Shown here: positions 3,367 to 42,759 of the stretch, in pieces
Position numbering within the stretch: position 1 is the stretch's first letter
Layout of the letters: each line of letters opens with the position of its first letter
Assembly (NCBI GenBank): GCA_964403955.1
Contig: CAYOID010000006.1
Coordinates: 3,867 to 67,866, forward strand
Direction of reading: 5' to 3'
Length of the DNA: 64,000 bases
Source: an uncultured Desulfohalobiaceae bacterium
GTDB lineage: Bacteria; Desulfobacterota; Desulfovibrionia; Desulfovibrionales; Desulfothermaceae
Made by a program: the position numbers and the translations under genes
Notes under the pieces: generated by a model
What the model saw: the letters and a program-made list of their open reading frames with translations, nothing else
The model's database searches: none
What the model was told of the DNA's origin: nothing

Positions 3367-3448
3367 AAAAAAAGGCGCAAACGGCAGAAGCGGGAGCTCA
3401 GCCCTTTACGCCTTCACTGGTTCCGTCCTGAGCCGGAACCCGTAAGAC
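3367..3448 (-). promoter_or_regulatory. leader element L1: GUCUUACGG-hairpin-AGUGAAGGCG overlapping an intrinsic terminator
   Basis: The minus strand reads UGUCUUACGG GUUCCG-GCUCAGGA-CGGAACC AGUGAAGGCGUAAAGGG...UUUGCGCCUUUUUUU, about 138 nt upstream of the OMP start. The same architecture occurs at 11807-11893 and 13654-13731. Confidence 0.55.
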
Positions 3449-3992: not shown

Positions 3993-5249
3993 CTAGAACT
4001 CAATCGCCAGCTGGGTGGTCAGGAGGTCCCGTTCGTCGTCGTTCTCAAACTCGCCGTGGAGGTACTCGAGGGCGATGGACGTGTTCGCGAACAGGCTGTA
4101 GGTGATGGCCGCGCCATACTGGGTTTCGGGGAGCAGGTCGCCCAGGTCGTCGCCCCCTTCATAGCGCAGGGCCAGTTCCAGGTCTTCAATGGGGACAAAG
4201 GCCAGCTCAAGGTTCCAGGCCTTGGGTTCATAGTCTTTGCCGCCGTCAAAACTCAGCTCCCCGGCCTCAAAGGTGTCCAGGGCCCCGACGTACTCGGCCT
4301 CGAGAAAGAACCGCTCCTGGTAGGAGACGCTCACGAAGGACCCCAGCCCCCCGACATGGTCGGCAACTTCGCCCGGGGTCTCCCCTTCAAGGCCGTCGCT
4401 GTCGGCAAGGTTGGAGATGTAGGAGACACCGGCCATCAGGCCGAGATCCGGAAGGGACTCTTCCGGCAGGGTGAAGGTGGCGCTGGCCACATATCCCTTG
4501 ATGTGGTCGTCCTCCCCGGTCTCATCGATATCCCCGTTGAACCCGGCCAGACAGAGGTCGAACATGTCGTTGGCGAACCCGACCTTGACCGCGCTCTCCC
4601 GGGTCTCCCCGAGCTCCAGGGTCAGAGGGTCGCTGATGAAGTGGCTCTCATAGTATCCAAAGGGGACGTACATCTTTCCGGCGTTGAGGTAGAGGGGGAC
4701 CACGTCTTCGCCGTCCAGGATGATGAACCCCTCATCCACGACCACCTCCTCGGTGTCGTCCTCTTCCCACAAGAAGAGCACGTGCCCGCCGACGTGCTTG
4801 GCGATGTCGGCGTCAACCCCGAGCTCCACCGTGGCCAGGGTGATGTCGCTGGACTCCTCGTCGTCGACGTCCGGATCAGCGAAATCGATGCTCTCGTACC
4901 CGGCCTCGACCTCCACGACCCCGCTGAAGGTCAAGCGTTCGGACAACGTGCCCAGCAGGGGTTTTTTCTCAAGCTGCTCTTCGACCCTGCGGACCCGGTC
5001 GGCCAGGCCCTTGACCCCGATGGAGCTGTCTTCGTGGACGTCGCTGGTCGATTCTGCAGCTGCGGGTGCAGCTTTCAATTGCGATTCCAGCTGCTCCAGG
5101 CGCTTCTTCGTGGTCTCCAGCTCCTGCATGAGCTCATAGTTTGACAACTCCGCGGCCAGAGCCGGACATGTGAGCAGAGACCCGCCGACCAGGAGGCATG
5201 CCAGGGCCAGGACGAGCTTCTTTGCCGCCCGTTGTGTTCTTGTGTTCAT
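3993..5249 (-). CDS. porin with N-terminal coiled coil and C-terminal beta-barrel (LbtU-like siderophore-porin look)
   Basis: The ORF track entry 3993..5375 is trimmed to MNTRTQRAAKKLVLALACLLVGGSLLTCPALA, which has an AAGGAGA RBS. It contains the coiled coil ELETTKKRLEQLESQLK, an acidic beta-strand-rich body, and ends ...QLAIEF. Confidence 0.7.
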   Translation of the reverse strand: MNTRTQRAAKKLVLALACLLVGGSLLTCPALAAELSNYELMQELETTKKRLEQLESQLKAAPAAAESTSDVHEDSSIGVKGLADRVRRVEEQLEKKPLLGTLSERLTFSGVVEVEAGYESIDFADPDVDDEESSDITLATVELGVDADIAKHVGGHVLFLWEEDDTEEVVVDEGFIILDGEDVVPLYLNAGKMYVPFGYYESHFISDPLTLELGETRESAVKVGFANDMFDLCLAGFNGDIDETGEDDHIKGYVASATFTLPEESLPDLGLMAGVSYISNLADSDGLEGETPGEVADHVGGLGSFVSVSYQERFFLEAEYVGALDTFEAGELSFDGGKDYEPKAWNLELAFVPIEDLELALRYEGGDDLGDLLPETQYGAAITYSLFANTSIALEYLHGEFENDDERDLLTTQLAIEF

Positions 5250-5524
5250 GGTGTCCTTCTCTCCTTGTGCTGAAGTGATGTGAAAGCGGGTGCGCACCTC
5301 ACGTGCGCCACCCTGTTTCCAGACGCAAAAAAACGCAGCAGCTCGACATGAGTGACAGACCTGCTGCGCCTTCACTTGCTCCGACGTGATTCAGAACCCG
5401 CAAGACACCGCTGACCTTGTGATGCGCCCCGTGACGCTTCCCAAGGATAGCTTTCAGCCGACTCCGGGCGGGGATCTCGCTGCAGTGGTCATGAGCATGG
5501 TGTTGGGTCCGGTTTGAGAGCCCT

Positions 5525-6385
5525 TCAGTGCGACTCCTCATCGGGTCTCTTGGGCTGATTGGGGATCTGGAAGACCAGGGTGGCTGTCCGCTTCATCCGG
5601 GTGTACTGTTCACGGTCTTCGCCTTGAGCGTCGACCTTGATGAAGTAGCGGACGTACCAGCGGCCGGGATGGGGGATGGGTATCTGAACCACGCCCCCGC
5701 TCACTCTGGTCTTGGGGTAGAAGTTGTCCTCGGCCTGGGTGGAAAAGCCGTTCAGCGTGGCGTCCCAGGTACCCTCGCCCGTGTAGGGCCGGCCGTCGAA
5801 AAAGACCTCCAGCTCCAGGGTCTCCCCAGCCTTGAGCCCGGTGATGTCCCGGGTGGGCACCAGCTCCAGGGGCAGCCCGATGTGCCTGGGGAAGGTTGTG
5901 GAAGGCTCTTCGCAGACCACGTAGGACTTGGTGTACTGTTTGCTGAAGAGGCTCTTGGTGACCTCCCGGGCCCTGTCGGCGATGGCGCTCTTGGGCTTGA
6001 TGGTGCGCCTTTTGCGGCCCTTTGTGTCGATGTACACCGTGTAGTAGCCGGGGTTGGTCTCTGCTGTCAGGGCATAGGTCCCGGGCTGGTCGTACCTGAT
6101 CATGTAGGAGTGGAGGCAGGTTTCGTCACGGATCCCGATGTCCTGGACCTCCCCATCGGGCTTGTGGACCTGGACGGACTTGAGCTTGTTGGCCCGGACG
6201 CCGTCGTCCACAGGGAAGTGATGCCCGTAGCAGAAGAACAGGGGAGTTTCCTTTCCTTCGGAGACCGTGTACCGGCTGGACTGAATGTAGAGGGAATGCG
6301 CCATGGACATGGTCGGGACCAGAAGGACCGCGGCCAGCACCGCGTACACGGCCGCTTGAACCTGAAGTGTCGGATGAATTCGCAT
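5525..6385 (-). CDS. DUF4198-domain periplasmic protein (Ni/Co-uptake-associated family), copy A
   Basis: ORF track, 286 aa. It has a signal peptide with predicted cleavage SMA|HSLYIQ, an AAGGAGA RBS, and is a paralogue of 7390..8193. Confidence 0.75.
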   Translation of the reverse strand: MRIHPTLQVQAAVYAVLAAVLLVPTMSMAHSLYIQSSRYTVSEGKETPLFFCYGHHFPVDDGVRANKLKSVQVHKPDGEVQDIGIRDETCLHSYMIRYDQPGTYALTAETNPGYYTVYIDTKGRKRRTIKPKSAIADRAREVTKSLFSKQYTKSYVVCEEPSTTFPRHIGLPLELVPTRDITGLKAGETLELEVFFDGRPYTGEGTWDATLNGFSTQAEDNFYPKTRVSGGVVQIPIPHPGRWYVRYFIKVDAQGEDREQYTRMKRTATLVFQIPNQPKRPDEESH

Positions 6386-7389: not shown

Positions 7390-8193
7390 CTACTTCATGT
7401 CCCTGGCCTGGACCCAGATCACGGCGTCCTGGGACAGCTCCTTGCCCTTGAACTCGGTATCCGGCCCGGTTCCCAGGGCGCAGAAGCCCCACCAGCCGGC
7501 CTTGGGCAGCCCGAAGGTGAACTCGCCGTTGACATTGGCCTTGATGGTCATGGTCACGAAGGAATCCTGAGGCGCATTCACCTTGGCCTGCTTGGCAAAG
7601 GCGTTCTTGTCCATGAGCGGTTCGTGATTCAGGTACTCGACCTCGATTTCGGCATAGGGCACCGGCTTGCCTGCGCTCTTGACGATGCCCCTGAAGACGT
7701 TGCCGGTCCACAGGGCGTAGGGCTTGTCCAGAGGCACGATCTCCGTGGGCAGCCCGATCTCCGAGTCCCAGTCCGTGGGGAAGCCGGCCGTGTTCACGAC
7801 CACCTTGGTGATCTGCTGGATGTAGGCGTCCTCCTTGCTTTCAAAGTAAGGCGCGGGCACCAGGCAGAAGACATTGTCCCCCATGCCCCGCAGGCGGTAG
7901 GAGGTCTCATAGGCCTTGCCGCTGTTGGACAGGCTGGTCCAGGTCGTGGCCTTGAGGGTGTCCAGGAGGTCGGTCTTGCGCCCTTTGCGGACCACGAAGA
8001 ACTCCTCGGGCTGGCCCATGTCCATGGTGTGCCCGGCATCGAAGGGATGGGTGAAGAACAGCTTGAGGTCGATTGGCCCGCCCTTGTTCAAAGCCGATTC
8101 AGGGGTGTAGATGGTCTGGAAGTGGGCCTGAGCCGGCAGGCTCATCAGGACCATGATCCCCAGGACGGCGGCCAGTGTGAACAGCTTTTTCAT
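7390..8193 (-). CDS. DUF4198-domain periplasmic protein, copy B
   Basis: ORF track, 267 aa. It has a signal peptide with predicted cleavage AQA|HFQTIY and an AAAGGAGA RBS. Confidence 0.8.
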   Translation of the reverse strand: MKKLFTLAAVLGIMVLMSLPAQAHFQTIYTPESALNKGGPIDLKLFFTHPFDAGHTMDMGQPEEFFVVRKGRKTDLLDTLKATTWTSLSNSGKAYETSYRLRGMGDNVFCLVPAPYFESKEDAYIQQITKVVVNTAGFPTDWDSEIGLPTEIVPLDKPYALWTGNVFRGIVKSAGKPVPYAEIEVEYLNHEPLMDKNAFAKQAKVNAPQDSFVTMTIKANVNGEFTFGLPKAGWWGFCALGTGPDTEFKGKELSQDAVIWVQARDMK

Positions 8194-8284: not shown

Positions 8285-8599
8285 TCAGTAGATATCCTTG
8301 CCCTTGACTTCGACCGCGTGCCCTTCACCGGCGTCGAAGACGACCGTGTAGGAGCCTTCGGGCTCGTCAAAGGTGAACTCGGAGTACTCGTCCATCTGAC
8401 CGGTCACGACCTCCTTGCCGTCCTTCTTGACCACCATCCGCACTCCGGAGGCGCTCGATCCGTCAGAAAAGCCGCCTTCGCAGGTGATGGTCCCGTCCCC
8501 GTTGTCCCAGCAGGAGCAGAGCGGGGTGTGGGCCAGGGCCTGGGCCGAGAGCACGGCGCACAGGCACAGCGTTCCGATGAAGATGCCGATTCGTCGCAT
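8285..8599 (-). CDS. small secreted Cys/His protein (104 aa), unknown family
   Basis: ORF track. It has a signal peptide with predicted cleavage ALA|HTPLCSCWDNGDGTITCEGG. An AAGGAGA RBS sits in the feoB 3' end, and the start is 2 nt after the feoB stop. Confidence 0.7.
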   Translation of the reverse strand: MRRIGIFIGTLCLCAVLSAQALAHTPLCSCWDNGDGTITCEGGFSDGSSASGVRMVVKKDGKEVVTGQMDEYSEFTFDEPEGSYTVVFDAGEGHAVEVKGKDIY

Positions 8600-8600
8600 G

Positions 8601-11096
8601 TCAATCTCCTTGTTTTGGTTTGAGTGTTGGCGGTGTGTTCCTGATGAGCCCGACGAGAATGGTCGTCAGGACCATCAGCCCGAAAAAGCCGAACATGGCC
8701 TGCAGCCCGGTCAGGCCCAGGAGCCTGGACCCGGTGAAGACCAGGCTGGCCACGAAGATCCCCAGGCCCATCTGATAGACCAGGGAGAAGAGCATCCACT
8801 TGGCCGAAGCCGTCTGGATCTTGATGGCCATCAGGGTGGCCAGGCAGGGCGGGTAGAGGACCATGAACAGGATCAGGGCCAGGGCGTGCAGGGGGGTGAA
8901 CCCCTTCTCGGTCTCCTTCATCCTGGTCTCCAGGCTGGCCCCGCTCTCCCCGTCCTGCTGGTAGATGGCCCCCAGGGTTGCCACCAGGGACTCCTTGGCC
9001 GCCAGGGCGCTCAGGAGGGAGACGTTGATCCGCCAGTTGAAGCCGGCCCACTGGGTGACAGGTTCCAGGGCGCGGCCCATCTGGCCCAGAAAGCTGGCGT
9101 CGATCCGGGCGGAGCGGATCTCCCGCCGGATGGTCTTGCGCTCCCGAACCAGGTTCTGGAAGGCCCGGCCCACCTCTCTGGCCTCCCTGGGCTTTCTGCC
9201 CCGCTTGACGATCTCGAAGTACTGGGGCTGCTTGCTCTCGAACCGGGCGTTGACCGCATCCGACTCCTCCTTGCTGCCCACTGTCTTCCGGGCCTCCTTG
9301 TATTCGTCCTGGAACCGGATGAGCTCCATGACCGAGGCCTGGTCGGTGAACAGGCCGCTGTAGGGGGAGTCTGCAGCCGTGGCCAAAAACTGCTGGAGGG
9401 CCTGCTGCCCCCGCTGCTCGAAACCGGCCTGCCGGGTCTGGCTCAGCCCGGGAAACTGGAGGAGGATGAAGACCACCACGGCCACGGCCGCGACAATGGT
9501 CACGATCTTGCGCACGAAGAGCCAGGTCCGCTCCACAGCCCGGCCCAGGACCCCCCGAAAGGTGGGCAGGTGGTAGGCCGGCATCTCCATGAGGAAGGGA
9601 GCGGTTTCCCTGCCGCGCAGCACGGTCAGACTGAGGATCTTGGCCACCGGCAGGGCCATGAACAGGGAGATCGTGGCCACGAAGAACATGGCCGGTCCGG
9701 TGTAGTCGGGGAAGTAGGCGTGTACCAGGAGGATGTAGAGCGGGATCTTGGCCAGGCAGTTGAGCATGGGGATGATCAGGATGGTCCCCAGCCTGGCCCG
9801 CTCGTCCGGAATGCCCTTGGAGGACATGATCGCGGGTACGGCGCAGCCGCCGATGTAGACCCCGCCCAGGACCATGGGCAGGGTGGACTGGCCGTGCAGC
9901 CCGAACCGCTTGAAGAGGCGGTCCATGATGAAGGCCATCCTGGGCATGTAGCCCACGTCTTCCAGAAAGGCCACCAGGGAGAAAAGAATCAGAAAGATGG
10001 GGATGTAGTTCAAAAGAGCGTTCACGCTGTCGATGAACCACAGGCCGAGGCTCCGGAGCATGGGGTCGAAGAGGAAGCTGGAGCGGGGAAGCGCCGAGGC
10101 CGCCAGCCCCTTGAGGGCCTCCAGCAGGGGCCAGGTGTAGTCCGTCAGCTTGTAGCCCTGGACAATGGCCAGCTCGTAGAGCAGGTAGATGACCCCTACC
10201 AGGATCAGCGGCCCCAGGATCTTGTGGCAGAGGACGCTGTCGACGCGGTCGGTCAGTTTGGCCTGATGGGGGCTCCTGGCTGTGGTGAACGCGTCCCCGA
10301 TCCGGGTGGCCTTCTGAAACCGGCTCAGGCTGATGAGCCGTTCAGGGGCCTGGCCCTGCTCCTTCTCGATCTCGGAGCGCAGGGCGGACACCCGCTCGAG
10401 CAGGCTCTGAGTTTCCCGGCCCCTGTCCTGGAGCATGTCCCAGAGGATGGGGTCCTTTTCCAGCAGCTTGACCGCCAGCCAGCGCAGGGGCAGGTGGGAG
10501 GGCAGGCCCTGGGTGTCCCTGAGCAGGCCGATGACCTCTTCAATGGCCGGCTCCAGGGGACCGTAGTCGATCCTGGATTTCGACCGGTCGACGTCCTGCT
10601 CGGCCGCCCGGGCAATGGCCTGCTTGAGCTCGTTTCTGCCCTGCCCAGTCTTGGCCGACATGGGCACCACAGGCACCCCGAGGGCCTCGCTCAGACCCTG
10701 GACGTCCACGTTGAGATTGTTTTTCCGGGCCACGTCGATCTTGTTCAGGTCCAGGACCAGGCGCTGCTCCATCTCCGCGATCTGCAGGAACAGGGACAGG
10801 TGGCGCTTGAGGGTGGTGGCGTCGGCCACCTGGACCACCACGTCCGGCTGCTCCTCCAGGAGAAAGTCCCTGGCCACCCTCTCCTCCAGGGAGTAGGTGC
10901 TCAGGGAGTAGGTCCCGGGCAGGTCGGTGATCTCCATTTTCAGCCCGTTGTGGCTGTAGGCCCCGACTTTCTTCTCCACCGTGACCCCGGGATAGTTGGC
11001 CACATGCTGGCGGGCCCCGGTCAAGAGGTTGAAGACCGTGGACTTGCCGCTGTTGGGCTGTCCCGCCAGGGCGATCCGGACTCGACCCTCAGCCAT
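8601..11096 (-). CDS. feoB: ferrous iron transporter FeoB (long form, 831 aa)
   Basis: It has the N-terminal G-domain IALAGQPNSGKSTVFNLLTG...NYPGVTVEKK...DLPGTYSL followed by a polytopic gate domain. It overlaps the feoA stop by 8 nt. Confidence 0.95.
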   Translation of the reverse strand: MAEGRVRIALAGQPNSGKSTVFNLLTGARQHVANYPGVTVEKKVGAYSHNGLKMEITDLPGTYSLSTYSLEERVARDFLLEEQPDVVVQVADATTLKRHLSLFLQIAEMEQRLVLDLNKIDVARKNNLNVDVQGLSEALGVPVVPMSAKTGQGRNELKQAIARAAEQDVDRSKSRIDYGPLEPAIEEVIGLLRDTQGLPSHLPLRWLAVKLLEKDPILWDMLQDRGRETQSLLERVSALRSEIEKEQGQAPERLISLSRFQKATRIGDAFTTARSPHQAKLTDRVDSVLCHKILGPLILVGVIYLLYELAIVQGYKLTDYTWPLLEALKGLAASALPRSSFLFDPMLRSLGLWFIDSVNALLNYIPIFLILFSLVAFLEDVGYMPRMAFIMDRLFKRFGLHGQSTLPMVLGGVYIGGCAVPAIMSSKGIPDERARLGTILIIPMLNCLAKIPLYILLVHAYFPDYTGPAMFFVATISLFMALPVAKILSLTVLRGRETAPFLMEMPAYHLPTFRGVLGRAVERTWLFVRKIVTIVAAVAVVVFILLQFPGLSQTRQAGFEQRGQQALQQFLATAADSPYSGLFTDQASVMELIRFQDEYKEARKTVGSKEESDAVNARFESKQPQYFEIVKRGRKPREAREVGRAFQNLVRERKTIRREIRSARIDASFLGQMGRALEPVTQWAGFNWRINVSLLSALAAKESLVATLGAIYQQDGESGASLETRMKETEKGFTPLHALALILFMVLYPPCLATLMAIKIQTASAKWMLFSLVYQMGLGIFVASLVFTGSRLLGLTGLQAMFGFFGLMVLTTILVGLIRNTPPTLKPKQGD

Positions 11097-11319
11097 GACA
11101 GGCCTCCACCTTGACGCAGCCGGCCTCCTCCCTGCGCATGCTGATGAGATAGCCGTCCAGCTCCAGCTCCACCGGGTCCTTGAGAGGGGCGTTGCGGACC
11201 ACCTTGACCAGCTGGCCCGGAAGCAGGCCGAGGTCGAGGAGCCTCTGCCCCAGAAGGCTCTCGGCGTTGACGGCCTGGATGAGGCAGCTCTGACCGGGAA
11301 GGATCTCTTTGAGGGTCAT
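11089..11319 (-). CDS. feoA: FeoA
   Basis: Internal start within ORF 11089..11472: MTLKEILPGQSCLIQAVNAESLLGQRLLDLGLLPGQLVKVVRNAPLKDPVELELDGYLISMRREEA. RBS is AAGGAGA. Confidence 0.9.
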   Translation of the reverse strand: MTLKEILPGQSCLIQAVNAESLLGQRLLDLGLLPGQLVKVVRNAPLKDPVELELDGYLISMRREEAGCVKVEACHG

Positions 11320-11412
11320 GACGTTCTCCTTGAATGCCGGCCCGGGTTCACAAGGCTGACAATGACAGTTTGAGAGTGCACAAATGATGGTCATTTTTTG
11401 AATTGTCCACCT

Positions 11413-11435
11413 GTAGGGGCGAGCGGCGCTCGCCC
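11413..11435. repeat. REP-like palindrome GTAGGGGCGAGCGGCGCTCGCCC
   Basis: This GC-rich palindrome lies in the feoA-feoA intergenic spacer. Related copies are at 33459-33526 and 61026-61153. Confidence 0.7.
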
Positions 11436-11468
11436 TGGATACTCCCAGCGGCGCCCGCCCCCCACGCA

Positions 11469-11792
11469 TCACGCCGGGCTCGGCTCCATGGCCAGAATGG
11501 CACTGGACATGCCCCGGCCGAGCATGAACCTGGAGTTTTCCACAGCCACCAGCAGGGGGCCGCTGCCGGAGTTGACCACGACGGTGACCTCTGTTCCGGG
11601 CATGAGCCCCAGGCTCTCCATCTTGCCCCAGAGCTGCCTCCCTCCCGAGTGCCCGACGATGACCACCTTCCGTCCCGGGCCAAAGCAGGACAAGGCTTTG
11701 ACCCGTGGAGAACCCGTCAGGTCCTGGCTCGAACTGTCTGCCGGGCTTGCGGTTTGAGCCCGTGCACTGAGGCCGTTATTTTTCTTGAACAT
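11469..11792 (-). CDS. FeoA-domain protein with N-terminal extension
   Basis: Internal start MFKKNNG... within ORF 11469..11849. The C-terminal half RKVVIVGHSGGRQLWGKMESLGLMPGTEVTVVVNSGSGPLLVAVENSRFMLGRGMSSAI fits the FeoA fold. Confidence 0.8.
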   Translation of the reverse strand: MFKKNNGLSARAQTASPADSSSQDLTGSPRVKALSCFGPGRKVVIVGHSGGRQLWGKMESLGLMPGTEVTVVVNSGSGPLLVAVENSRFMLGRGMSSAILAMEPSPA

Positions 11793-11806: not shown

Positions 11807-11893
11807 AAAAAAAGGCGTCACCCGGCAGCTCTTCAAAAGCCCGGGTCACGCCTCCACTTCCTCCGCGCTTTGAAAAGCCGAAGGCCGTAAGAC
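11807..11893 (-). promoter_or_regulatory. leader element L2 (same architecture as L1 and L3) with intrinsic terminator
   Basis: The minus strand reads UUGUCUUACGG CCUUCGGCUUUUCAAAGCGCGGAGG AAGUGGAGGCGUGACCCGGGC..GCCGGGUGACGCCUUUUUUU and ends 15 nt before the feoA-like ATG. Confidence 0.55.
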
Positions 11894-11898
11894 AATTC

Positions 11899-11927
11899 TT
11901 TTTGAGTTAAGACTCTCTACTCAAAAA
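11899..11927. promoter_or_regulatory. palindrome TTTTTGAGT-N11-ACTCAAAAA (candidate operator or extra leader hairpin)
   Basis: It has perfect 9-bp arms and lies 5 nt upstream (minus strand) of the L2 core. A TTGACA hexamer is at 11961-11966 (minus strand). Confidence 0.4.
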
Positions 11928-11997
11928 CGACAAAGTGAACTTGCCTCTGCGGCTCACATTTGTCAAGTCTTTTTCCTGCTCTTCGCAGGAAAAAGAT

Positions 11998-12353: not shown

Positions 12354-13604
12354 TCAATTGATCTGCTCTCCAACCGCTTCCGAACTGAAGATCACCTCGG
12401 ACACGGCGTTCAGGCTCGAGTTCTCGAGCATGTGAAAGGTCTTGCTGTGCTTCTTGGACAGATTCTTGACCGCGCTGCAGGCCGTGTGGCTGTTGCAGCT
12501 GACCGGGCAGATGACCATGTCGGCCCTTTTCAGGCGTGCCTCGAGCTGCTTGAGCCCTCCTTTCGTGGTCCCGTCGTGGTGTTCGAATATCCCGCCGCGG
12601 CCTTCAATGAGCCCCCGAAACAGGGTCTCCATCCTGGTGATCCCCCCGACAATGAGGATCCGCTTCTGGCAGAGATCATAGGACGGGCAGTTCTCGTCGC
12701 ACCGGTCCGTGGGCAGGGCCTGGTCCATGATCTCCACGGACTGTTTCTTGAACTGCCTGATCATGGCCTTCTGCCGCTTCAGCTCCACGGACAGGATGTC
12801 CGCCTTGTGCTTCAGGGCTTCCAGCTTCAGCTCTCTGTCCTGCAGCTCTTGCTCCAGGACAGCATTCTTCTCCTTCAGGTCCAAGTTGTCCCTTTCCAGT
12901 TCGCCAAAGCGATGGGTGACTTGCAGACCAGCGAGCTCATCTTTCAACCCGGTTGCTTCCTTCTCTGCAGCTTCCGCCCTGGCCTTCAGCCCGGCATGTT
13001 CCCGGCGCAGCTCTTTGTTCTCCCTGTGCAGCCTCTTCCTGTCCCTGCCTGCGTCCTTGAGGCTCAAGCGCTGCTGTTCGAGCATCTTGTGCTGTCTGCC
13101 CAGCTTCTGTCTCATGGCCAGAACCTGCTCGCTGTGAAAATGCATGGTCATGTGCACGGTCCCGAAAATCTCTCTCTTGAGTCCAGGCGGCAGATCAGGG
13201 GAAATGGCTGCTGCCCACAAAACCGGCGCAGGGTTGCCTTCGTCGCATGCGAGCTTGCAGTGGGCCGCCAGAGACAGGTGATCGAGCTCCCTGAACAGAG
13301 CAGCGTCTGCTCCGAATTTGCGGTCAAGCAGGCTGTCGACCCTTCTGGACAAGGGACTTTCATTTTTGGAGCTGGCCACCAGGGCCTCGTGGAGCTCGAA
13401 GGGAGAGGCTTTTTTCACCGCCAGATCGGTCTTCTTCAAGAGCTGTCGCTGTTCGGAAGCACTGAGGCACATGCCGATCACCGGGCAGATGAACAGCTGG
13501 TCGATTTCCCAGAATTTCAGCCTGGATCTGGGCTGAGCCTCCTGAACGTCCTGACAGAAGATGCTGGTTTCAACCTGTTCCGGACATGGTGTCGTCACTG
13601 GCAT
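12354..13604 (-). CDS. DUF2325-domain protein with long central coiled coil
   Basis: Start is set at MPVTTPC (RBS AAGGAGGA). The C-terminus ILIVGGITRMETLFRGLIEGRGGIFEHHDGTTKGGLKQLEARLKRADMVICPVSCNSHTA matches my recollection of the DUF2325 signature. The middle ~150 aa are heptad-rich (KELRREHAGLKARAEAAEKEATGLKDEL...). Confidence 0.75.
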   Translation of the reverse strand: MPVTTPCPEQVETSIFCQDVQEAQPRSRLKFWEIDQLFICPVIGMCLSASEQRQLLKKTDLAVKKASPFELHEALVASSKNESPLSRRVDSLLDRKFGADAALFRELDHLSLAAHCKLACDEGNPAPVLWAAAISPDLPPGLKREIFGTVHMTMHFHSEQVLAMRQKLGRQHKMLEQQRLSLKDAGRDRKRLHRENKELRREHAGLKARAEAAEKEATGLKDELAGLQVTHRFGELERDNLDLKEKNAVLEQELQDRELKLEALKHKADILSVELKRQKAMIRQFKKQSVEIMDQALPTDRCDENCPSYDLCQKRILIVGGITRMETLFRGLIEGRGGIFEHHDGTTKGGLKQLEARLKRADMVICPVSCNSHTACSAVKNLSKKHSKTFHMLENSSLNAVSEVIFSSEAVGEQIN

Positions 13605-13653: not shown

Positions 13654-13731
13654 AAAAAAGGCGCGTCCCGGCTCATCCAGGGTGCGCCTTCACTGATCCC
13701 CCGCCCTTGAAAAGGGTGGGACCCGTAAGAC
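13654..13731 (-). promoter_or_regulatory. leader element L3 with intrinsic terminator
   Basis: The minus strand reads GGUCUUACGG GUCCCACCCUUUUCAAGGGCGGGGGAUC AGUGAAGGCGCACCC..GACGCGCCUUUUUU, 50 nt before the DUF2325 start. Confidence 0.55.
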
Positions 13732-14213: not shown

Positions 14214-14792
14214 TCACTCGTTGTGTGTGCTGGAAGCCACCTGATCCTTCACGTCAGAGGAGAACTCATTGATCCTGGCCTGGCATTTCTCCGGCCTGCG
14301 CCCTTCCCTGCGGTACTCTTCAAAATAGTTGAGCCAGCTCTCGCCGGCCCTGGGGCAGGCCTGGATGAAGGCCATGAAGTCGGTCAGGCTGTCCAGGGTG
14401 GCGGTGCTGAGCGCATGCTCCATCTTGCAGGCGTCTTCGTTGGCGGTGTCAAAGTCGATTTTCAGGATCTCGGTCAGGAACTGGAGCAGAATGTCATGCC
14501 GGTGGCGCATGTCCTTGCCCACGACCGTTCCGTCATCGGTCAGCTCCACGTACTCGTACTTCTCGTAGTGGACCAGCCCCCTGCCGCTCAGATTCTTGAG
14601 CATGCTGGTCACCGTGGGCATCTTGACATCCAGCCGTTTGGCGATGTCCTTGACCCGGACGAACTTCTTGTCCTGGCTGAGATCGAAGATCGCCTCCAGG
14701 TAGTCCTCCATAGCCGGGGTCAGTGGCTTGTCGTTCTGGGTTGCTTTTGTCTCAGGGACCAAGGCTTGTTCTCGCGGTGTTAGATTCTTCAA
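14214..14792 (-). CDS. DtxR/MntR-family metal-dependent transcriptional regulator
   Basis: The motifs LTPAMEDYLEAIFDLSQDKKFVRVKDIAKRLDVKMPTVTSMLKNLSGRGLV...RHRHDILLQFL fit the family. The start is a TTG in the ORF track, so the exact start is uncertain. Confidence 0.85.
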   Translation of the reverse strand: MKNLTPREQALVPETKATQNDKPLTPAMEDYLEAIFDLSQDKKFVRVKDIAKRLDVKMPTVTSMLKNLSGRGLVHYEKYEYVELTDDGTVVGKDMRHRHDILLQFLTEILKIDFDTANEDACKMEHALSTATLDSLTDFMAFIQACPRAGESWLNYFEEYRREGRRPEKCQARINEFSSDVKDQVASSTHNE

Positions 14793-14894: not shown

Positions 14895-15833
14895 CTAGTT
14901 CAGGGCTTGCTTCAATGCCCTGGCGGCGTGGAGAAGGTTTTCGGACCAGTTTTCAGCTAAAGGATCGAGTTCGACAACCCGTGCACCCATTTCCCTGGCA
15001 ATGACCTGGGCACTCTTGTCCGAAAACTGCGGCTGGACAAACACCGCTGTGATGCCAAGCTCGCGGCCATGGCGGACGATCTCGGCCAGTTCCTTCGGGC
15101 TCGGTTGCTTGCCTTCAGACTCGATGGGCACCTGATTCAGGTCGTACTGCCGGGCAAAATAGCCCCATGCCGGGTGAAACACCATGAAAGACCGCTTGTC
15201 TTCAGGCAGAGACGTGAACATGGCCCGAATCTTGTCATCCAGCCCGTCAAGCTCGTTCAAAAAATCCTTCAAGTTCTGGTCATAGATCGCTTTGTTGGAA
15301 GGATCGATCTTCACCAGCCCGTCACGGATGGTGCGGGCCTGTATCTTAACCAGGACAGGATCAAGCCAGATGTGAGGATCAAGGATCCGGTCATCCTTGT
15401 GCCGATCCTCGTGACCATGTCCTTTGTCATGCTGATGGCCGTGAGCATCGTGATGGTCTCCGTGGTGGTGACCAGAAGCGTGCTGATGAGCAGCCATGGC
15501 CCATTTCCTGATGTTCTCGTCAGTTGCAAAAAAGGACATCTTTGAATTGATCGCAGAAATGCGCGGCAGCCAGGTGCTTTCAAAGGGAACCCCAATGGAG
15601 AAATAGGCCGCAGCCATACTCAGCTCTGTCATTTGACCGGGAGAAGGTTCGTACGTGGCCGGACTGGCCCCTGGCATGACCATCACAGAGACATCTACGA
15701 GGTCGCCGCTGATGTGCTTCACAAAAGTGCGCTGCGGTAAAATGCTGACGTAAACCAGAGGATTGTCCTTGGCCACCGCAAAAGGAATGGCTGCAAGGCA
15801 CATCAAGCATGTGAACAGAATAACCTTTTTCAT
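14895..15833 (-). CDS. znuA: metal ABC-transporter substrate-binding protein, ZnuA-like with His-rich loop
   Basis: Start is set at MKKVILFTCL (RBS GGAGGG). The loop HQHASGHHHGDHHDAHGHQHDKGHGHEDRHKDD is typical of ZnuA. No znuB or znuC is adjacent. Confidence 0.85.
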   Translation of the reverse strand: MKKVILFTCLMCLAAIPFAVAKDNPLVYVSILPQRTFVKHISGDLVDVSVMVMPGASPATYEPSPGQMTELSMAAAYFSIGVPFESTWLPRISAINSKMSFFATDENIRKWAMAAHQHASGHHHGDHHDAHGHQHDKGHGHEDRHKDDRILDPHIWLDPVLVKIQARTIRDGLVKIDPSNKAIYDQNLKDFLNELDGLDDKIRAMFTSLPEDKRSFMVFHPAWGYFARQYDLNQVPIESEGKQPSPKELAEIVRHGRELGITAVFVQPQFSDKSAQVIAREMGARVVELDPLAENWSENLLHAARALKQALN

Positions 15834-15904
15834 ATGACCCTCCACAAAGCTTTATGGACAATGATTTTTAGCATAACAATCCGTTATACTTCATACTCTT
15901 GCTT

Positions 15905-37832: not shown

Positions 37833-37964
37833 AACCTTCCTCCTTTCATGTGAAGAGCTTATGGCCCGGGACTTTGCCCGGACCAGCGCCTTTGAGAGCG
37901 ATCCGGGGATGTCCCTTTTTCATCCGCACTGATCATGCCGGGAACTGGTTCCGAGTCCCGGACA

Positions 37965-38130
37965 GACTTTTCTTCAGGCAGGTCTTCTGACTCTCGGATC
38001 GTCCTACTCGCCGCGCCTTCCCATCCGGCTCATGCCGGCAGTGGCTCTTTGCGGCTTTCGTCCCCGATCACAGCGGCGGGCCCGTCCCTGACTTGCACAG
38101 AGTTCCCTTTTCAGCCTGGCTTCGCTTGGT
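37965..38130 (-). promoter_or_regulatory. cobalamin (B12) riboswitch, copy 1
   Basis: The minus strand reads AAAAGGGAACUCUGUGCAAGUCAGGGACGGGCCCGCCGCUGUGAUCGGGGACGAAAGCCGCAAAGAGCCACUGCCGGCAUGAGCCGGAUGGGAAGGCGCGGCGAGUAGGACGAUCCGAGAGUCAGAAGACCUGCCUGAA. The GGGAA, GCCACUG and B12-box AGUCAGAAGACCUGCC elements are all present. Confidence 0.9.
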
Positions 38131-38235
38131 TTTCCTTGTTTCCAGCGAAGCGGGCACCTGAAGAAGCAGTAAGGTGCAGCCCCATGGGTGTGGTGGCATG
38201 AGGCTGCCTTTTTCAAAGAACGTTCATCGTTTTAT

Positions 38236-39993: not shown

Positions 39994-40054
39994 GTCCCTT
40001 TTTTATCCACCGAAACCGGTCGGGCTCGTCTCCTGACCCGAAAGCGAGCGCCAA

Positions 40055-40215
40055 TTCTTCATTCAGGCAGGTCTTCTGACTCTCGGATCATCCTACTCGC
40101 CGCGCCTTCCCATCCGGCTCATGCCGGCAGTGGCTCCTTGCGGCTTTCGTCCCCGATCACAGCGGCGGGCCCGTCCCTGACTTGCACAGGGTTCCCTTTT
40201 CAGCCTTCACCGTCA
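40055..40215 (-). promoter_or_regulatory. cobalamin (B12) riboswitch, copy 2
   Basis: It has the same aptamer as copy 1, with 3 substitutions over ~145 nt (40062-40205 versus 37973-38116). GCCACUG and AGUCAGAAGACCUGCC are present. Confidence 0.9.
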
Positions 40216-40282
40216 GCAATGCTGGATTTACCAAGCATCCCATATCATTGGTGAAGTGCAACCCGAATGATCTTTTTCAAAT

Positions 40283-41180: not shown

Positions 41181-41256
41181 CTGGTGCCGAGGGACAGAAT
41201 TGAACTGCCGACACGGGGATTTTCAGTCCCCTGCTCTACCGACTGAGCTACCTCGG
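41181..41256 (-). tRNA. tRNA-Phe (GAA)
   Basis: The reverse complement is GCCGAGGTAGCTCAGTCGGTAGAGCAGGGGACTGAAAATCCCCGTGTCGGCAGTTCAATTCTGTCCCTCGGCACCA, 76 nt. It folds as a cloverleaf with anticodon loop CUGAAAA. Confidence 0.95.
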
Positions 41257-41392
41257 CGCAAACAAAAAATCTGTCTACTAAAAAGAAGCTCAAAATGCAA
41301 GGTTCTCTGGGACACTTTTTTACAAAAGTCGTCTCCGGTGTCTTTTTGGGTATGGATTGCTTTGTCGACAAGGCTCTGGCATAGCAAGGCTG

Positions 41393-42672: not shown

Positions 42673-42759
42673 TGGTGCCGAAGGGGAGATTCGAACTCCC
42701 ACGGGCTATTGCCCACTAGACCCTGAACCTAGCGTGTCTACCAATTCCACCACTTCGGC
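42673..42759 (-). tRNA. tRNA-Leu (CAG)
   Basis: The reverse complement is GCCGAAGTGGTGGAATTGGTAGACACGCTAGGTTCAGGGTCTAGTGGGCAATAGCCCGTGGGAGTTCGAATCTCCCCTTCGGCACCA, 87 nt. It has a long variable arm and anticodon loop UUCAGGG. Confidence 0.95.

Follow-up and report, generated by a model that had tools for sequence, protein, structure and literature searches.

A terminator-coupled leader RNA, probably a cis-regulatory attenuator, upstream of predicted iron-starvation genes in sulfate-reducing bacteria

The 64,000-nucleotide stretch of DNA from an uncultured Desulfohalobiaceae bacterium analyzed here (contig CAYOID010000006.1; the whole stretch is referred to as the window) includes four copies of a leader RNA, named L1 to L4, all of them on the minus strand and each consisting of the block GUCUUACGG, a variable hairpin, the block A-AGUGAAGGCG and an intrinsic terminator. 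Three were recognized by reading the sequence, L1 (3367-3448), L2 (11807-11893) and L3 (13654-13731), and in these the order is GUCUUACGG, hairpin, AGUGRAGGCG and a G+C-rich stem followed by 6-7 U residues. An earlier note on this DNA had reported these three copies, which are present at those positions with the architecture it described, but its count was one short: a search for the 3' block located a fourth, L4 (5327-5406), with the structure GUCUUGCGG / GUUCUGA-AUCACG-UCGGAGC / A-AGUGAAGGCG / GCGCAGCAG…CUGCUGCG-U7. L2 heads a feoA-feoA-feoB operon (8601-11792, minus strand) with two Pfam FeoA matches and an 831-amino-acid FeoB open reading frame (ORF); its U-run stops 14 nt before the ATG at 11792 and not 15 nt, as had been stated. 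L4 is located 77 nt 5' of a gene for an LbtU-family siderophore porin (3993-5249, minus strand; NCBIfam NF033652, 262 bits against a cut-off of 90), and L3 heads a gene encoding a Cys/His-rich protein of the DUF2325 family (12354-13604, minus strand; Pfam PF10087, E 2e-24). The unit headed by L1 (1180-3348, minus strand) includes a 60-codon ORF, an outer-membrane channel of the MetA/phenol-degradation type and a possible periplasmic binding protein, whose Peripla_BP_2 match of 22.6 bits is below the Pfam cut-off of 27.5 bits.

The 5' part of each leader, here called the sensor, is a region of about 40-55 nt composed of an outer helix, P1, a junction in which GG lies opposite AA, and a hairpin of variable length, P2. 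P1 is formed by GUCUUAC and GU-G-AAGGC, giving 7 bp with one bulged G; the pairing of CUUAC with GU(G)RAG around a hairpin that had been proposed earlier is thus part of a longer helix than the one drawn. In L2 the sensor (11849-11893, minus strand; covariance-model score 61.5 bits, E 1e-16) consists of P1 GUCUUAC / GU(G)GAGGC, the GG/AA junction and P2 CCUUCGGCUU-UUCA-AAGC-G-CGGAGG, and when folded alone it adopts P1 plus P2 at -20.1 kcal/mol (z -2.8). The L2 terminator (11807-11854, minus strand), GAGGCGUGACCCGG…CCGGGUGACGCC followed by U7, takes its first 5 nt from the 3' strand of P1 and is the minimum-energy fold of the full-length leader (-44.1 kcal/mol, z -4.6). The remaining sensors and terminators are all on the minus strand. 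L1 has a sensor at 3409-3448 (P1 and P2 GGUUCCG-GCUCAGGA-CGGAACC; 39.4 bits, E 2e-9; z -3.7) and a terminator at 3367-3414 (AAGGCGUAAAGGG…CCGUUUGCGCCUU plus a U-run). L3 has a sensor at 13685-13731 (P1 and P2 GGUCCC-A-CCCUU-UUC-AAGGG-CGG-GGGAUC; 38.5 bits, E 3.5e-9) and a terminator at 13654-13690 (AAGGCGC…GCGCCUU plus a U-run), while the L4 sensor (5367-5406; 37.3 bits, E 8e-9), in which the 5' strand GUCUUGCGG turns an A-U pair of P1 into G·U, is followed by a terminator at 5327-5372 (AAGGCGCAGCAG…CUGCUGCG plus U7). All four sensors folded alone show one common shape, P1, a small purine junction and P2, with z between -2.8 and -3.7; when the 3' extension is included, the four leaders fold into P2 and a long terminator that starts at the A or G right after the bulged G. 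The conserved blocks are more frequent in the window than expected by chance, since TCTTACGG is found 3 times against an expectation of 0.39, and CTTAC-N10-40-GTGRAGG 3 times against 0.23, a count that was reached in 0 of 100 shuffles.

The leader RNA is present in well over a hundred genomes, as judged from sequence matches. A scan with an exact pattern, which required both conserved blocks and a T6 run in one genome per species (GTDB), detected at least 118 loci in the species-representative genomes, compared with a chance estimate of about 4. Four of the listed matches were spurious (Binatia, Halomonas, Eubacterium and Dysgonamonadaceae), all lacking the hairpin; the remaining listed matches belong to Desulfobacterales, Desulfatiglandales, Syntrophales-type lineages, Desulfarculia and one Desulfovibrionales assembly, and they include the cultured Desulfosarcina alkanivorans, D. 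widdelii, D. variabilis and strain NaphS2. A few short contigs with other phylum labels may be binning errors. A 41-kb contig of a Thermodesulfovibrionales metagenome-assembled genome assigned to Nitrospirota (locus L081) carries two copies, at 1503-1572 and 5285-5335; these copies may be genuine and the family may extend past Thermodesulfobacteriota, or this contig may be misbinned. The covariance model R1, built from 16 copies and searched against the window and 99 loci, returned 125 copies, about 25 of which fall outside the exact pattern. Related motif-bearing loci are 66-80% identical to the window at the DNA level. Because the exact-pattern scan had fixed the conserved flanks in advance, an independent sample was assembled of 80 metagenome loci picked only for a relative of the DUF2325 protein encoded downstream of L3. 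It yielded 45 model copies, 45 of 45 on the strand of the gene, and where the upstream region was present a copy was located directly 5' of the DUF2325 gene in 26 of 65 loci. The gut Desulfovibrionaceae loci of this sample (L183-L199) have the DUF2325 gene with no copy of the RNA upstream in any of them.

The sequence of P2 changes from copy to copy while its stem is retained, as the earlier note had described for the first three leaders, and a covariance model and a covariation analysis bear this out in two samples. In the alignment derived from the pattern and the model the three helices are 96% paired and P2 is 95% paired, with all six standard pair types occurring at several of its positions. 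P2 has 222 cells in which both sides of a pair have changed, compared with 61 in shuffled alignments, and 0 of 500 shuffles reached 222; sliding the structures by 1-3 columns reduces the paired fraction to 31-66%. In the protein-picked sample the corresponding values are 62 and 20, and again 0 of 500 shuffles reached the observed number. The covariation signal is located entirely in P2. P1 is near-invariant, including in the protein-picked sample, where the core CUUACGG … A-AGUGAAGGCG is almost unchanged, and it shows little covariation because it hardly varies. The variation found in P1 is mostly pair-preserving: its A-U pair becomes G·U in 9 copies and G-C in 1, U·G becomes C-G (6 and 3 copies), G-C becomes G·U in 2 copies, and U-A becomes U·G in L2 of the window. 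The conservation of about 19 nt is real and exceeds what base pairing needs, since the independently picked sample has the near-invariant core as well. Other constant features are a strand polarity at the base of P2, with 91% pyrimidines in the 5' arm and 92% purines in the 3' arm, the AGUG of the 3' strand at the hairpin base, with an A before it in 135 of 144 copies, and the terminator-arm bases right after GGCG, which are conserved as YAAC. A conserved AGGRAU flanks the motif on its 5' side, and mutual information identified no partner for it among upstream, P2, core and terminator columns. An alternative register of P1, UUACG/CGUAA, was discarded; only 2 of 139 copies are predicted to adopt it, and a C after GGCG, where present, disrupts the pairing. 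A K-turn, a sarcin-ricin loop and an iron-responsive element (IRE) were also considered as the junction module, by eye, and their defining consensus did not fit.

The presence of several copies within 11 kb of the window could be taken as the sign of a dispersed repeat or mobile sequence with a fortuitous terminator, or of a fixed partial terminator that damps expression, with no regulation in either case. This explanation is hardly credible, and in the form of a plain repeat it is close to refuted: conservation is limited to a core of about 19 nt, P2 and the upper terminator stem stay paired although their sequence and length differ between copies, there are no conserved flanking repeats, and the element occupies a fixed position with respect to the promoter and precedes one functional regulon across many genera and several orders.

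To define this regulon, the first three ORFs downstream of each of 109 copies were clustered and representatives were scanned. In 84 of the 109 cases the copy precedes one of six gene groups: feoA, feoB or feoC (35 copies); a DUF2325-family gene, often followed by a gene for a 126-amino-acid partner (21); a TonB-dependent receptor, ExbB or DUF3450 (14); an LbtU-type porin (8); flavodoxin (4); and a P-type ATPase (2). Further copies precede an ECF sigma factor with FecR, an AraC regulator, an OprB-family porin, Slp or HU. By predicted function the downstream genes form a coherent iron-starvation regulon; the earlier suggestion that the leaders are shared by metal-uptake operons is supported, and the metal can now be specified as iron. 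The regulon overlaps the Fur regulon predicted for other delta-proteobacteria, in a study that saw no Fur box in its one Desulfobacterales-type genome (PMC545781). In the window, the 831-amino-acid FeoB ORF clusters with 30 FeoB genes located downstream of other copies. Between feoB and the LbtU porin gene lie genes for two DUF4198 proteins and a small secreted NikL-like protein (5525-6385, 7390-8193 and 8285-8599, all minus strand), and the L2 unit possibly extends to the NikL-like and DUF4198 genes. A 107-amino-acid homologue of the small NikL-like protein follows feoB in nine other loci, which suggests that this protein is a conserved periplasmic accessory of the Feo system. Just upstream of the L3 locus a gene for an MntR/DtxR-family regulator adjoins one for a ZnuA-type metal-binding protein (14214-14792 and 14895-15845, minus strand); homologues of the regulator gene are found in at least five motif-bearing loci (L008, L036, L053, L074 and L078).

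A recognizable -35 box, TTGACC/A, was found for 72 copies, 66-73 nt 5' of the motif in 58 of them, and is preceded by an A-tract in the layout A6-N2-CTTGACA. The TTGACA hexamer of L2 (11961-11966, minus strand), 73 nt 5' of the motif and with an A-run before it, fits this family layout. In three copies the promoter is 35 nt upstream with a TATAAT ending 7 nt before the first G, and therefore the RNA can start exactly at P1. Palindromes of the form TTAG-N4-8-CTAA cover the -10 box and the early leader in 28 of the 58 standard promoters, about 60 times the background (loci L005-L116, for example L021:5020-5090); a transcription factor probably also acts at these promoters, and the palindrome is a candidate operator for an iron-responsive regulator of the Fur or DtxR type in Desulfobacterales. 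These palindromes differ from the published delta-proteobacterial Fur box, the consensus of which, TGAAAATNATTTTCA, has 7 matches in the window, all with 3 mismatches and none at the promoters of the four leaders. In gut Desulfovibrionaceae, a dFUR-like box was seen before the DUF2325 gene (L188 and L195). Between the L2 promoter and the motif lies a palindrome with perfect 9-bp arms, TTTTTGAGT-N11-ACTCAAAAA (11899-11927), which like the nearby TTGACA is as described earlier; it occupies the place of the TTAG-N4-8-CTAA palindromes of the relatives and is either an operator or a 5' leader hairpin. Its 11-nt spacer together with the first base of the 3' arm reads AGAGAGUCUUAA and contains GUCUUA, the first six bases of the 5' strand of the motif, which could be a decoy, a duplication remnant or a coincidence. 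A perfect 13-bp hairpin, GUCUUUUUCCUGC-5 nt-GCAGGAAAAAGAC (11967-11997), abuts the L2 -35 box; it is probably a terminator on both strands, and its A-run doubles as the A-tract that the family has upstream of -35. The conserved blocks themselves were considered as a Fur/DtxR DNA operator and rejected, as they form no DNA palindrome, are strand-bound and bracket a covarying RNA helix; they are found about 35 nt or more downstream of the predicted transcription start and always on the coding strand.

The position of these promoters also bears on attenuation by a leader peptide, in which an ORF running from an AUG, made of AU and the first G of the motif, to the UAA of GCGUAAC would control the terminator. 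An AUG exists there in 83 of 144 copies, and a P2 length divisible by 3 occurs in 70 of 144 copies, where 48 would be expected. Yet with the three close promoters the RNA begins at the first G or beside it, which removes the AUG, L3 of the window has no start codon at that site, AGG abuts the AUG and leaves no usable Shine-Dalgarno spacing, and third-codon positions are invariant while the "amino acids" of P2 vary freely. Such a peptide is very improbable and is close to excluded.

The leaders have the G+C-rich stem followed by a U-run that is typical of intrinsic terminators, with a run of at least five T residues within 70 nt in 147 of 153 copies; a terminator consensus scan missed them since their loops exceed its 8-nt limit. 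The pentamer AAGGC is common to the 3' strand of P1 and the 5' arm of the terminator, and folding of 139 curated copies agrees with the mutually exclusive folds and the antiterminator/terminator layout that had been put forward for this region. In the sensor alone at least 6 of the 7 P1 pairs form in 89% of the copies, whereas at full length the terminator is the minimum-energy fold in 139 of 139, with a penalty of +6.3±1.7 kcal/mol for imposing P1. As long as the 3' arm of the terminator has yet to be transcribed, 109 of 139 copies are predicted to fold into P1. The family thus combines two generic features of riboswitches, a covarying conserved structure and a platform fold that excludes the sensor fold. 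A second type of platform, sequestration of the ribosome-binding site, was not found among the 153 copies; the only one devoid of a terminator, L111:2453, has no clear sequestering helix. In that copy (minus orientation of its locus) AGUGAAGGCA-UAAC is directly followed by a ribosome-binding site (AGGAG) and an AUG, with no U-run, and it can be considered either a translational expression platform or a decayed copy.

Taken with the covariation of P2, the conserved anatomy and the regulon, these properties indicate that the leaders very probably constitute a conserved family of cis-regulatory attenuator RNAs. A more specific model, which we regard as likely but would not rate any higher, is that of an ON switch stabilized by an effector and answering iron deficiency. 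During transcription P1 and P2 would fold first. Completion of the 3' arm would then allow the terminator, which is favored by about 6 kcal/mol, to strip P1 and stop transcription, so that the default state would be OFF. An effector bound to the invariant core of P1 and the junction would keep P1 closed and the base of the terminator sequestered; with P1 held, the remaining stem would be set apart from the U-run, no termination would take place, and the polymerase would read into the feoAB, porin, TonB/ExbB, flavodoxin or DUF2325 genes. Default termination with read-through upon stabilization of P1 is proposed because P1 and the terminator share AAGGC, as in known ON switches. Since the regulated genes are needed at iron shortage and would be ON when P1 is stabilized, the effector in this model must report iron deficiency.

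The prediction that P1 prevails as long as the terminator lacks its 3' arm also accommodates a switch of the opposite sign, in which P1 would give read-through by default and a factor present in iron-replete cells would capture GUCUUACGG or the purine-rich 3' strand and free AAGGCG for the terminator. It would require just an iron-replete signal, the usual kind, and the 3' strand is indeed a long purine tract; the factor would be an iron-loaded protein, Hfq with a small RNA or a metal ion. We consider this arrangement improbable. In every copy the terminator is favored by about 6 kcal/mol, and its nucleation is possible in the upper stem, which is not blocked; an unprotected P1 should therefore be displaced unaided. 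Moreover, there is no complementary trans-acting RNA in the window, where TCTTACGG is found only in the leaders on either strand, and known ON switches are likewise built with a P1 whose 3' strand doubles as the terminator 5' arm.

The terminated transcript could have a role of its own, as a small RNA (about 120 nt) made in response to iron starvation and acting in trans like RyhB, with the conserved bases as its seed, a possibility compatible with control in cis. The terminated fold leaves GUCUU and the upstream AGGRAU single-stranded, followed by a hairpin, the terminator and a U tail, which is the typical layout of Hfq-dependent small RNAs, and there are several copies per genome with an identical core of 17-19 nt. 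A function in trans is nonetheless quite improbable, given that the conserved 5' and 3' blocks are mutually complementary, that their changes preserve pairing and that every copy is directly upstream of a gene on the same strand.

Several observations weigh against the ON switch. The support for P1 comes mainly from conservation and energy, as there is only one fully compensatory change, and P1 has mismatches in a few copies (L130, L143 and L161, three single mismatches) as well as a variable first base. Nearly all copies share one expression platform, the terminator, which is less typical of metabolite riboswitches, and the RNA is small, essentially one irregular hairpin that suits a protein site as well as a ligand pocket. 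The palindromic operators at many promoters may mean that iron is already sensed by a transcription factor and that the RNA answers another signal. Finally, an ON switch for iron uptake needs a low-iron signal, and we know of no RNA ligand of this kind. The effector could well be a small molecule or ion, although we hold this with reserve; it might instead be an RNA-binding protein in its iron-free form, and there is a smaller chance that it is something else.

A reader of the latter kind would make the leader a protein-dependent attenuator in the style of the IRE, where a metal-free iron or Fe-S protein clamps the core of P1 and the junction while the RNA itself binds no small molecule. The irregular hairpin, the bulged G, the GG/AA junction and the invariant helix positions resemble known protein sites, and the strict polarity at the base of P2 (91% pyrimidine, 92% purine) is what a protein or groove reader would be expected to impose. 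The family is essentially confined to one phylum, and the Cys/His-rich DUF2325 gene is the commonest one downstream outside Feo, as an autoregulated factor would be. On the other hand, the P2 loops are variable with no CAGUGN apical loop of the IRE type, and there is no candidate protein with a supported RNA-binding feature; we therefore see this attenuator as somewhat unlikely. The DUF2325 protein is the obvious candidate because its cysteines are invariant (C40, C46, C306, C312, C366 and C376) or nearly so (C302 and C370) and because outside the Feo system no partner is commoner. Several of its histidines are invariant as well, including an HxxxH, and the protein could bind a metal or an Fe-S cluster. 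Its relatives include one at 93% (from a Logan assembly) and others at no more than 62%, and it may be the Fur-regulated "genY" of Rodionov 2004. An AlphaFold model (pLDDT 81.5) comprises a helical N-domain, a coiled coil of about 150 residues and a Rossmann-like C-domain. A Foldseek comparison of this model with the PDB gave 0 matches at E<=0.001 and only a generic receiver- or Rossmann-like resemblance, and a profile search of PDB sequences returned coiled coils only, with no RNA-binding fold. As a trans-acting RNA-binding factor the protein was set aside; neither profiles nor model gave an RNA-binding signal, the role remains a guess, and gut Desulfovibrionaceae carry the gene without the RNA.

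The earlier note had found no match to known riboswitch cores and had raised the possibility of an undescribed class, and no family of Rfam 15 fits. A scan of the whole window with its 4227 models at the gathering threshold, which covered the three original copies as the note had advised, produced only two cobalamin riboswitch and two tRNA matches, all elsewhere; the 18 loci with the best-scoring copies had 0 matches at the same threshold. When L1, L2, L3 and the leader of L021, a canonical relative, were searched singly at E<=10 with permissive filters, only microRNA, long noncoding RNA and small RNA noise was obtained, on other hairpins or on the terminator. The cobalamin riboswitches (RF00174) are full-length and lie about 2 kb apart at 37960-38176 (105.9 bits) and 40049-40229 (92.1 bits), and the tRNA genes (RF00005) are at 41185-41257 (70.3 bits) and 42676-42759 (51.6 bits), all on the minus strand. 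Full-text searches of the published literature, including motif-discovery surveys of 26 and 50 bacterial genomes, found no description of the motif; the 2024 survey of 50 genomes covered Desulfobacula toluolica and mentioned no feo or iron motif. A 2024 review of metal sensing in bacteria lists RNAs for B12, the molybdenum cofactor, Mn and NiCo/Fe(II), which respond to excess metal or cofactor, and none covered there turns on iron acquisition (PMC11672702).

The leader RNA is compact, extremely conserved and coupled to a terminator, and in many genera of environmentally dominant sulfate reducers and hydrocarbon degraders it marks the genes of iron starvation. It might prove to be the first RNA class that senses iron deficiency and governs a whole iron-starvation regulon in sulfate reducers, beside or instead of control of the Fur type, a suggestion we advance with caution. 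Such a class would be either a riboswitch for a metabolite or ion that rises at iron shortage or the bacterial equivalent of an IRE, with an apo-protein as its reader. A small-molecule effector would amount to an as yet unrecognized chemical signal of iron deficiency; a protein effector would make the system a bacterial analogue of the IRE and its iron regulatory protein (IRP) working at the level of transcription. In both cases the family provides a simple marker to annotate the iron regulon in metagenome-assembled genomes of Desulfobacterota and a testable RNA of 45 nt with several cultured hosts.

Iron uptake in bacteria is usually explained by Fur/DtxR repressors and trans-acting small RNAs of the RyhB type. 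The leader regulon shares with that circuit, as described for the Fur regulon of delta-proteobacteria (PMC545781), feoAB, porins, flavodoxin, an AraC regulator and perhaps genY-genZ, and many of its promoters also have a palindromic operator, but its control element is an RNA structure within the transcript, downstream of the promoter. Short leader structures that overlap a terminator and serve a regulon of several operons are also generally known from the ribonucleic antiterminator (RAT)/LicT, ANTAR, PyrR and TRAP sites. Unlike those of RAT, ANTAR and TRAP, the leaders have no tandem hexaloop hairpins, RAT consensus or GAG/UAG repeats; a single hairpin, P2, precedes the terminator, its loop being variable, and no gene for a cognate binding protein is found consistently beside the element. 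The IRE with IRP1/aconitase is, like the leader element, a short hairpin of iron-metabolism mRNAs that contains a bulged nucleotide; the leaders, too, would act at low iron, an apo-protein reader is plausible for them, and binding of RNA by aconitase occurs in bacteria. The IRE, however, has a CAGUGN apical loop with an unpaired C bulge 5 bp below, a combination absent from P2, whose loops vary in sequence and length and whose conserved bases are at the foot of the hairpin; it also acts on translation or mRNA stability, while the leaders act through an intrinsic terminator.

Further parallels are found among riboswitches. The czcD (NiCo) riboswitch, for which a response to Fe(II) has been reported (PMC11672702), is likewise a metal-homeostasis RNA common in anaerobes and a terminator-based ON switch. 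It has a four-way junction with several metal sites and turns on exporters at metal excess, whereas the leader family is a hairpin located before importers, and the logic is therefore opposite; its Rfam model, RF02683, gave no match on the leader elements even at E<=10. The pbuE/ydhL adenine, crcB fluoride and yybP-ykoY Mn2+ riboswitches are, as is generally known, conserved aptamers in 5' leaders in which the outer helix competes with a terminator. In these ON switches, as in the leaders, the terminator is favored thermodynamically, so that read-through needs a stabilized P1, and several copies per genome precede one functional set of genes. The leader family differs from them in being a single irregular hairpin and not a multi-helix junction, in having no Rfam match, and in preceding genes of uptake and iron sparing and not of efflux or detoxification. 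The terminator/antiterminator device itself is well known, which does not hold for the leader family, its regulon and the signal that it implies.

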